Source: a virus
Taxonomy: Duplodnaviria > Heunggongvirae > Uroviricota > Caudoviricetes
Length of the DNA stretch: 64,000 nucleotides
Strand: one strand, 5' to 3'
IMG/VR virus record: IMGVR_UViG_3300028833_000055
Span: 174,446 to 238,445 of that record
Part shown: in pieces, positions 51,749 through 52,437 of the stretch
How positions within the stretch are numbered: the first letter of the stretch is position 1
Layout of the letters: each line of letters begins with the position of its first letter
Notes under the pieces: generated by a model
Databases searched by the model: none
What the model saw: the letters and a program-made list of their open reading frames with translations, nothing else
Told to the model about the DNA's origin: nothing
Position numbers and translations under genes: made by a program

Positions 51749-51766
51749 ATTACCACCCTTTTTTAA
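51735..51766. terminator. bidirectional terminator
   Basis: GGGTGGTA-aat-TACCACCC then T6; stop codons of the convergent genes at 51746-51748 and 51763-51765. Confidence 0.75.
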
Positions 51767-52437
51767 TCGCTTTCCTCATCGTCAGTCTCGTTATTCAACT
51801 GACTGCACATCTTCGTCATCTTCCTTATCATCTGGTCGCTTTCCCTTTTCATCTTGGAATACTCACGCTCCCTTTTTCTGAAAATCTTGTCGAAGCGGGA
51901 TTTCGCCTCCTCTGCATCCAGATACAAGTCCTTTCCACCCAGTACCTGTGAGAGTTCTTTCTTTGAAAGAAACTCACCGTATACATCGTTCATAAGTTTT
52001 GTAAACCATTTCTTGTGAAATTCGGTGGCCGACTGTATTTCGTGGTATTTACCCACATCACCACCCGAGTATGCGTGAATCATAACCTCACACCAGGGGC
52101 AGAATTCTATTTCGTCTGCACTCATCATAATCACGGAAGCCGCCGAACAGCAGGCACCTTCGACATATATGAATATACGTGCCTTGCATCTTAACAATGA
52201 GTGGTATATCTGTATTGCACAGTCCAGGTCACCGCCGTAGTTGTTGATGTGAATATGTATCTCGTCATATTCGGAAGTTGAATTGATGGCACGCAGGAAG
52301 TCGTGGTAATATTCCTTGTCTTCTATCGTACCCGTAAGGAAAAAGTCTATAAGTCTGAAACTTCTTCCGTTTTCACAAACGTTGGTTTCCTTCAAGGGAT
52401 TGCCTTGTATCGGTGGTAAATTTTTTTCTTCACACAT
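51763..52437 (-). CDS. ClpP-fold serine protease (prohead or processing protease candidate)
   Basis: IHINNYGGDLDCAIQIYHSLLRCKARIFIYVEGACCSAASVIMMSADEIEFCPWCEVMIHAYSGG parallels ClpP I.SPGG.V.AG.AIYDTM......V.T...G.AASMGS.LL.AG....R...P.S..MIHQP.GG; the start at 52437 (MCEEKN) is supported by the promoter motif at 52459-52476 lying upstream of it. Confidence 0.65.
   Translation of the reverse strand: MCEEKNLPPIQGNPLKETNVCENGRSFRLIDFFLTGTIEDKEYYHDFLRAINSTSEYDEIHIHINNYGGDLDCAIQIYHSLLRCKARIFIYVEGACCSAASVIMMSADEIEFCPWCEVMIHAYSGGDVGKYHEIQSATEFHKKWFTKLMNDVYGEFLSKKELSQVLGGKDLYLDAEEAKSRFDKIFRKREREYSKMKRESDQMIRKMTKMCSQLNNETDDEESD

Follow-up and report, generated by a model that had tools for sequence, protein, structure and literature searches.

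A ClpP-like protease encoded downstream of phoH in a T4-like huge phage is an unlikely processing enzyme for a shared N-terminal leader

The question raised by this locus is which enzyme processes a short N-terminal leader that is shared by five proteins of an uncultivated huge phage. The locus lies in a 64,000-nucleotide stretch of DNA, referred to below as the window (IMG/VR record IMGVR_UViG_3300028833_000055, positions 174,446 to 238,445; Caudoviricetes). A preliminary description of this stretch had put forward a ClpP-like serine protease encoded there as a prohead protease that cuts the leader. This role is unlikely, and a slender chance is given to it, because of the family to which the protein belongs, the gene context that this family has in hundreds of phage genomes, the T4-like character of the window phage and the contrast between a common protease and a rare leader. 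The reading preferred here, which is considered fairly probable as a whole, is that of an accessory, PhoH-linked ClpP-like protease that would act outside head maturation, together with a T4-style leader that would be cut by a gp21-type enzyme. The value of this result is mainly corrective: the presence of a ClpP fold in a phage is insufficient for calling a protein a prohead protease.

The gene and the codons of its predicted active site are located as follows.

51763..52437, minus strand: gene of the ClpP-like serine protease, 224 amino acids (Pfam CLP_protease, phrog_1827, AlphaFold2, Foldseek)
52144..52146, minus strand: codon of Ser98, the predicted nucleophile, in the motif G-A-C-C-S; equivalent to E. 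coli ClpP Ser97 and invariant
52075..52077, minus strand: codon of His121, predicted catalytic residue, in the motif VMIHAYSGG; equivalent to E. coli ClpP His122 and invariant
51928..51930, minus strand: codon of Asp170, predicted catalytic residue, in the motif GGKDLYL; equivalent to E. coli ClpP Asp171 and invariant

The minus-strand open reading frame has its first ATG at 52512 and its stop at 51763, and would encode 249 amino acids. Public gene calls place the start at the ATG at 52437, and the resulting 224-amino-acid product is 100% identical to a public protein (P0001) encoded by contigs as long as 353,681 bp. The upstream ATG falls within a terminator-like hairpin and is considered spurious. 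Based on this position and on the public calls, the interval 51763-52437 assigned by the preliminary description is retained as the gene. The product is a real ClpP-fold serine protease. A profile search gave a match of 57.2 bits to Pfam CLP_protease (PF00574; gathering cut-off 20.2, E = 2.5e-15), and ClpP chains in the PDB are matched as well. Structural modelling against ClpP, a check that the preliminary description had proposed, yielded an AlphaFold2 model with a mean predicted local distance difference test score (pLDDT) of 83, for which Foldseek returned ClpP structures with a probability of 1.0 (TM 0.52-0.68), consistent with a ClpP/crotonase-like fold. The ClpP-fold core spans approximately residues 15-175 and is followed by a conserved, charged C-terminal helix (residues 175-218). 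In alignments with E. coli ClpP and 12 homologues, and separately in a 24-sequence alignment, Ser98, His121 and Asp170 fall on the catalytic residues of ClpP, and they are unchanged in 24 of 24 homologues. The Ser-His-Asp triad, on whose integrity the earlier proposal had been made to depend, is thus intact, and the protease is probably active. Of the two signatures previously reported, MIH(A)xxGG is present as VMIHAYSGG; a literal GxAAS is absent. Because the ClpP motif G-x-A-A-S aligns with G-A-C-C-S, Ser98 is taken as the nucleophile, and the Ser of the AAS that follows downstream is replaced by Thr in most homologues.

The spacing of the triad (23-25 residues from Ser to His and 49 from His to Asp) and the length of the handle region, which aligns without gaps, are like those of E. 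coli ClpP (MEROPS S14). In contrast, the identity to cellular ClpP is only approximately 20-24%, the N-terminus is modelled as beta-strands rather than as an axial loop and helix A, the residue after the catalytic Asp is a Leu and not the Arg of E. coli ClpP, and the KGKR segment is absent. The canonical ClpP models are also far from their cut-offs (27 bits against 308.6 for TIGR00493 and 39.5 bits against 249 for NF001368; 27-40 bits against 230-360 for cellular ClpP models overall). The best profile match is instead to phrog_1827 (‘ATP-dependent protease’, category ‘other’), with 172 bits and E = 1.7e-50; here, residues 35-226 in the numbering of the 249-amino-acid reading frame cover positions 5-196 of the 202 in the profile. 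None of the head-maturation PHROGs exceeds 100 bits (E = 3.8e-28 for phrog_94, which is of the ClpP type), and the NCBIfam head-maturation model NF045542 reaches 85.1 bits (E = 4.9e-24), under its cut-off of 120. The closest viral models are the phage ‘Clp protease’ sequences of T5-like phages, Otagovirus, Alteromonas V22, Rheinheimera Barba and Pseudoalteromonas H101. By tblastn, a homologue is present in 1584 isolate phage genomes at E <= 1e-8, and among the matches listed nearly all are annotated as Clp or ATP-dependent protease. On the strength of these profile matches, the ClpP-like protein is assigned to the widespread accessory phage ‘Clp protease’ family phrog_1827, an already known kind of protein.

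With the members of this family from T5-like phages, ICP1 (gp211), rV5/PVP-SE1 (ORF151), KVP40-like phages and jumbo phages, the window protein shares a full-length profile match, a ClpP-like core with the motifs G-x-C/A-x-S, MxH..GG and GKD[FWLY], the charged C-terminal helix, a position outside the head module and, as in many members, a PhoH gene upstream. It is unlike the isolate homologues in that it is only 25-33% identical to them, that its gene is set apart from phoH by a gene of 3.9 kb, and that its phage, of approximately 350 kb, belongs to a rumen/gut-type Bacteroidota lineage. With the ClpP-related head-maturation proteases (NF045542; PHROGs 94, 1684 and 2976) it has a phage-type core and significant secondary matches in common. 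Unlike these enzymes, it scores under the curated cut-off, carries no scaffold or capsid fusion and is not encoded beside portal, scaffold and capsid genes. The charged C-terminal helix could have been read as a scaffold-like tail, but it is common to the whole phrog_1827 family, T5-like members included.

The gene contexts of the family in other phages point in the same direction: in T5-like and KVP40-like phages its members occupy regions of early or replication genes. The homologue of the T5-like phage SPC35 is located between genes for a deoxynucleoside monophosphate kinase and holin/endolysin, those of NoPa and 20Sep416 are near tRNAs and genes for deoxycytidine monophosphate deaminase and ligase, and that of the Straboviridae phage R10Z (Schizotequatrovirus) is in the replication cluster, between the genes for dihydrofolate reductase (frd) and the UvsX recombinase. 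The T5 head is matured by pb11 and the heads of T4-type phages by gp21; SPC35 and R10Z are known to have such a head protease, different from the ClpP-like homologue, and the ClpP-like family therefore supplies an extra protease in those lineages. Among 80 IMG/VR loci of the family, a T4-type portal gene is 1.3 kb away in one, and in none is a gp21-like or gp23-like gene present at a distance of up to 10 kb. Conversely, in Bacteroidota-type jumbo phages, no ClpP-like gene was found in approximately 100 loci that were centred on gp21-like or gp23-like genes. The recurrent neighbour is PhoH. Its gene precedes the ClpP-like gene on the same strand, at a distance of 0-4 genes, in Limnohabitans DC31, H101, Barba9A, ICP1, FFH2, KLEP7 and PVP-SE1. 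An upstream PhoH gene is also reported for V22 in the paper on that phage (PMC7289586). Of the 80 IMG/VR loci, 64 extend for 3 kb or more upstream of the gene; in 40 of these, PhoH is present within 4.1 kb upstream, with a typical gap of 750-1050 nucleotides, and the linkage is seen in 8 of 15 clusters when the loci are clustered at 70% identity. The window has the same arrangement, with phoH 4 kb upstream of the ClpP-like gene on the same strand. Because the family is usually found beside PhoH rather than beside head genes, it is unlikely to provide the enzyme that trims the leader. A DNA methyltransferase gene is often observed downstream of the ClpP-like gene (H101, Barba9A, FFH2, PVP-SE1).

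In the window itself, the surroundings of the ClpP-like gene are composed of the following features.

56441..57157, minus strand: gene of a PhoH-like P-loop ATPase (Pfam PhoH, 4.6e-56)
52522..56397, minus strand: gene of a conserved protein of 1291 amino acids, between phoH and the ClpP-like gene (phrog_29329, 1.9e-124)
52496..52518, minus strand: terminator-like hairpin between the genes of the 1291-amino-acid and ClpP-like proteins, a 10-bp stem followed by CTTTTTTATT (terminator scan)
51736..51762, minus strand: terminator-like hairpin of 12 pairs right after the ClpP-like stop (terminator scan)

The hairpin at 52496..52518 has a G+C-containing stem and a T-run, and its RNA fold is predicted at -16.9 kcal/mol (z = -3.5). 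That at 51736..51762 separates the converging ClpP-like and RuvC-like genes. Non-homologous hairpins are found at the position equivalent to the first of these in loci L047, L048 and L016, and loci L001, L048 and L016 carry equivalents of the second. The order phoH, 1291-amino-acid gene, ClpP-like gene is therefore as the preliminary description gave it, but the minus-strand operon that was read into this order is doubtful given the hairpins on both sides of the ClpP-like gene. The ‘structural’ nature there ascribed to the 1291-amino-acid protein is likewise unproven, as phrog_29329 is a family with no assigned function. Its homologues occur in Lak and LR7565xx megaphages, Sphingomonas phage PAU (gp264), pT24 and MaF61, and in pT24 the gene follows head-completion/head-tail adaptor genes and precedes a tail-collar protein gene. 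Homologues are also present in Tenacibaculum, Chryseobacterium and Flavobacterium jumbo phages, where the annotation is always ‘hypothetical’. The protein was considered as a sheath and rejected, with no detectable kinship to the T4 sheath or to a sheath-like open reading frame of 1371 amino acids in L036.

The order of the three genes is retained in relatives of 55-66% identity. A methyltransferase gene is inserted between the 1291-amino-acid and ClpP-like genes in L016, and a homing endonuclease gene follows the ClpP-like gene in L047. In LR756500, no ClpP-like gene is found within 20 kb of the homologue of the 1291-amino-acid protein. The arrangement is therefore best read as the common PhoH/ClpP-like pair with a large gene between its members rather than as a head operon. 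The neighbours of the ClpP-like gene are phoH, the 1291-amino-acid gene and the RuvC-like gene, with no portal, scaffold or capsid gene adjoining. At the level of DNA, no match to the region was found among isolate phages.

This linkage could also be given more weight than it has in the preferred reading. PhoH and the ClpP-like protein may form a single ATP-driven degradation or remodelling module for host takeover in many large phages, with the leader unrelated to it, and this explanation has a modest chance of being right. It is favoured by the same-strand upstream PhoH of eight isolate lineages and of the 8 of 15 IMG/VR clusters, and by the joint retention of both genes in the clade of the window at 55-66% identity. 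However, these observations are of gene order alone, in approximately half of the lineages no PhoH gene adjoins that of the protease, and the two genes are usually separated by at least one small gene and in the window by one of 3.9 kb. In addition, PhoH-family proteins are associated with RNA rather than with protein unfolding. The specific claim that the PhoH-like ATPase and the ClpP-like protease belong together in a single module conserved among phages, extending from ICP1/rV5-like phages to 350-kb Bacteroidota phages, is doubtful, and a small chance is given to it on the basis of the gene order. If it is true, phage phoH would work with a dedicated ClpP-fold peptidase in host takeover, and the two might, for instance, constitute a novel type of device for ATP-dependent degradation or for RNA-protein remodelling. 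A literature search found no paper that handles PhoH and the ClpP-like protease as one unit. The recurrence of PhoH upstream of this family in unrelated phages offers a testable handle on the function of phoH, a common and unexplained phage gene, and the linkage is the part of this analysis that most deserves further study.

In the preferred reading, of an accessory protease and a leader cut by another enzyme, the leader calls for an explanation of its own. The genes that carry it, and the gene upstream of two of them, are listed here.

48156..49037, plus strand: leader-bearing DUF285 protein, 293 amino acids (Pfam; shared N-terminus)
49037..49789, plus strand: leader-bearing DUF285 protein, 250 amino acids (Pfam; shared N-terminus)
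25076..25783, minus strand: leader-bearing protein, 235 amino acids, no family match (shared N-terminus)
26389..27621, minus strand: leader-bearing protein, 410 amino acids, no family match (shared N-terminus)
13091..13777, minus strand: leader-bearing protein, 228 amino acids, no family match (shared N-terminus)
47579..48154, plus strand: gene of a T4 gp2-like DNA end protector, immediately preceding the two DUF285 leader genes (phrog_429, 1.1e-8)

All five proteins start with MG[VI]L[KL][NS]LT[DK]EYF, so that the L-T-[DK]-E-Y-F junction noted in the preliminary description is indeed present near each N-terminus. The leader does not end at YF: conservation runs on to R17 and E19-[DE]20, and the overall pattern is MG[IV]L..[LI]T.EYF....R.E[DE]. 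In the window and related strains together, 13 distinct leaders are found on at least six unrelated protein bodies, which thus have this N-terminus of 20 residues in common, and M1, G2, L4, T8, E10, Y11, F12 and R17 are invariant. The upstream DNA of the leader genes is unrelated from one to another, and over the first 12 codons the third positions have an identity of 0.49 (49%) as opposed to 0.92 (92%) at second positions. This difference indicates selection on the leader peptide, and an explanation at the level of DNA or RNA was rejected on both of these observations. A membrane anchor was also rejected, given a weak hydrophobic moment (0.24-0.5) and a negative net charge. In a model of the 250-amino-acid DUF285 protein, built from a shallow alignment, the leader is predicted to form a separate helix (residues 3-12) that is followed by a low-confidence linker. 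Two copies of the leader are arrayed in the window and in L002 and five in L001 and L006. These DUF285 arrays lie directly downstream of the gp2-like gene (window 47579-49789, plus strand; L001 12662-16868; L006 1621-6832); no copies are present at the equivalent site in L016, L047 and L048, and one large scaffold ends inside such an array. A degenerate DNA pattern of the leader matches only six stretches in IMG/VR, and the leader is absent from all 80 loci of the ClpP-like family. The family is thus widespread, being present in hundreds of phages that lack the leader, whereas the leader is confined to few contigs.

The capsid-targeting sequences of T4 are N-termini of 10-20 residues on otherwise diverse internal proteins and are removed by gp21 (PMC3012670; PMC5694885). 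As in the T4 gp21/IPI-III/Alt system, the window leader is a conserved N-terminus of such a length on unrelated proteins, with variable arrays and invariant Glu residues, and its phage is T4-like. Based on this comparison, the leader looks like a T4-style capsid-targeting signal. It is unlike the T4 leader MKTYQEFIAE in sequence, the form MGILxxLTxEYF....RxE[DE] being unrelated, and the ClpP-like enzyme of the window is not gp21-like (peptidase S77). The preliminary description had likened the candidate site after the Glu of LT[DK]E to the L/I-x-E sites of T4; this does not hold, as the Leu is at P4 and not at P3. Since gp21-family enzymes of giant phages cut after A/S/G-x-E, and a T-F-E site has been documented (PMC5694885), the invariant T8-x-E10 is a reasonable candidate for a gp21-type cleavage site. 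A capsid-targeting-like leader family in an uncultivated huge phage could mark the proteins that the phage injects. In L016, a relative with 26.5% G+C, two adjacent paralogues (17124-18407, minus strand) start with MIKKF[KD]E[YF]I rather than MGIL..LT.EYF, and in one of the two the ..IRERGLEA segment of the window DUF285 proteins comes next. This observation suggests that the N-terminal tag may differ between lineages around a common [KD]E[YF][IF] core, which loosely resembles T4 MKTYQEFIAE.

The assignment of the phage to the T4-like group is based on marker genes, which include a gene pair at 34818..39495.

34818..37163, plus strand: DUF2201_N metallopeptidase-domain protein, 781 amino acids, in the gene pair (Pfam)
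37201..39495, plus strand: MoxR-type AAA_5 ATPase, 764 amino acids, in the gene pair (Pfam, phrog_1297)

The gp2-like end protector counts among the markers of T4-like ‘group 2’ jumbo phages (PMC7824862), and the pairing of MoxR with a metallopeptidase is known from group 2.2 jumbo phages, for which a role in virion assembly and structural-protein processing was proposed (Iyer et al., PMC7824862). The metallopeptidase of this pair is a further, weaker candidate for leader processing. The window additionally encodes a sigma factor, a T4_baseplate protein, anaerobic ribonucleotide reductase subunits, DnaK and an SPFH/flotillin protein, and its marker set matches the list of Iyer et al. for T4-like ‘group 2/2.2’ jumbo phages, which include Lak and PTm1 (PMC7824862). 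Membership of the Jug phages was rejected based on G+C content (approximately 39% in the window and 27-30% in Jug phages). The T4 late-promoter motif TATAAATA shows no enrichment in the window.

Group 2.2 jumbo phages are reported to use a gp21/S77 prohead protease, the phyletic distribution of which follows that of the gp20 portal, and ClpP is patchy in them and has been interpreted as host-directed (PMC7824862). In huge Bacteroidetes phages, a gp21-type ‘prohead core scaffolding and protease’ is part of the head module and the Clp protease is placed apart, under proteostasis (PMC9723584). The relatives conform to this pattern. In LR756500.1, the closest public relative by the 1291-amino-acid protein, genes for the portal, a gp21-domain-scaffold fusion and a gp23-type capsid protein are consecutive, and in most related loci retrieved with a capsid alignment the gp21-scaffold fusion is encoded directly upstream of the capsid gene. 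Genes of the gp21/S77 type were found in LR756500, Lak-B4 and MaF61-like loci. Fusion of the gp21 domain to a scaffold-like protein of 600-1900 amino acids is seen in Bacteroidota-type jumbo phages (L043 9932-11830; L015 13693-17907; L024, L035 and others), and the MaF61 copy is annotated merely as ‘prohead scaffold’. ORF139 of MaF61 was tried as a gp21 candidate and gave no PHROG or PDB match. The 64-kb window contains no gp21/S77 prohead protease gene. Exact-protein look-ups that extended both ends of the window led to short contigs without head genes. The MaF61 capsid protein, used as a query, has 24 relatives, of which none is on the 353-kb contig, and an alignment of MaF61-type capsid proteins matched other lineages in IMG/VR. 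The LR756500 capsid protein gave 3228 matches, among the 120 best listed of which the head module of the window phage was not reached, and it was not reached with a gp21-domain alignment either, the IMG/VR matches to which are dominated by LR756500-like phages.

These observations can be combined into a proposed explanation, for which one further gene of the window is relevant.

22614..24488, minus strand: full-length DnaK (Hsp70; 854 bits with the NCBIfam DnaK model)

The ClpP-like protease would be made from a transcription unit of its own, as the flanking hairpins suggest, and its targets during infection would be proteins of the host or of the phage. It would work jointly with PhoH or in parallel to it and belong to a phage toolkit for proteostasis and takeover. 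DnaK and the MoxR-type ATPase in the window, and Cpn10 in related strains just beyond the gene cluster, provide the context of such a toolkit; in L002, L016, L047 and L048 the Cpn10 gene lies just past a helicase gene, beyond the cluster of the ClpP-like gene. The leader of the five proteins would serve as a T4-style capsid-targeting propeptide and would be removed after T8-x-E10 and/or at R17-x-E19, most probably by a gp21/S77-type protease encoded in the head module outside the window. A gp21-type enzyme is thus the likelier leader-processing enzyme in comparison with the ClpP-like protein, and in T4-like huge phages this enzyme is to be sought among gp21-type proteases.

Several points weigh against the preferred reading. 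A gp21-type protease of the window phage is inferred from relatives and the literature. An action of the ClpP-like family together with PhoH is suggested by gene order alone. The phage head-protease model NF045542, with 85 bits, scores above the cellular ClpP models, with 27-40 bits. The ClpP-like gene directly follows a large, conserved gene whose product is possibly a virion protein. In L045, the gene of a homologue with 35% identity is preceded, at a distance of 1.8 kb, by a T4-type portal gene and is followed directly by two baseplate genes, and no separately annotated head protease was found in the rV5-like phage FFH2. Were these points to be followed, the ClpP-like protein would be a prohead protease or an additional head-internal protease that enters proheads and cuts the five leaders after E10. 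The intact triad and fold, the significant match to phrog_94 and to NF045542, the retention of the gene order behind the possible virion protein in relatives of 55-65% identity, the L045 locus, and the occurrence of a ClpP-like contig and a leader-bearing contig in one metagenome (3300021387) would agree with this role. It is nevertheless improbable. The best family is the accessory phrog_1827 and the NF045542 score is under the cut-off, gp21-like and gp23-like genes are missing from the surroundings of the family in the 80 loci and its homologues stand beside non-head genes, other head proteases coexist with homologues in T5-like and T4-like phages, and a terminator-like hairpin separates the gene from that of the 1291-amino-acid protein. 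Moreover, group 2.2 jumbo phages and LR756500 have gp21, the protease occurs in hundreds of phages from which the leader is absent, and cutting after Glu is a trait of the gp21 family that, to our knowledge, has not been described for ClpP-type enzymes.

A reading of the leader as an N-terminal degron or chaperone tag, to which either the phage DnaK or the ClpP-like protease in concert with an unfoldase would bind, and which would confer a timed lifetime or assisted folding, is very improbable: its Leu-rich hydrophobic core is flanked by charges and predicted as a separate helix before the linker, and two leader genes lie 0.6-1.9 kb from the DnaK gene, but profile scans of the window proteins found no Clp ATPase or unfoldase gene in the 64 kb, the leader is acidic overall, and variable arrays with one N-terminus beside a gp2-like gene fit the T4 internal-protein model better (PMC3012670).

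Finally, the window contains the following additional genes.

31223..32764, minus strand: SPFH/Band 7-flotillin protein, 513 amino acids, with an N-terminal hydrophobic segment
24569..25060, minus strand: small WYL_2 (Sm-like SH3) protein
33007..33390, minus strand: second small WYL_2 (Sm-like SH3) protein

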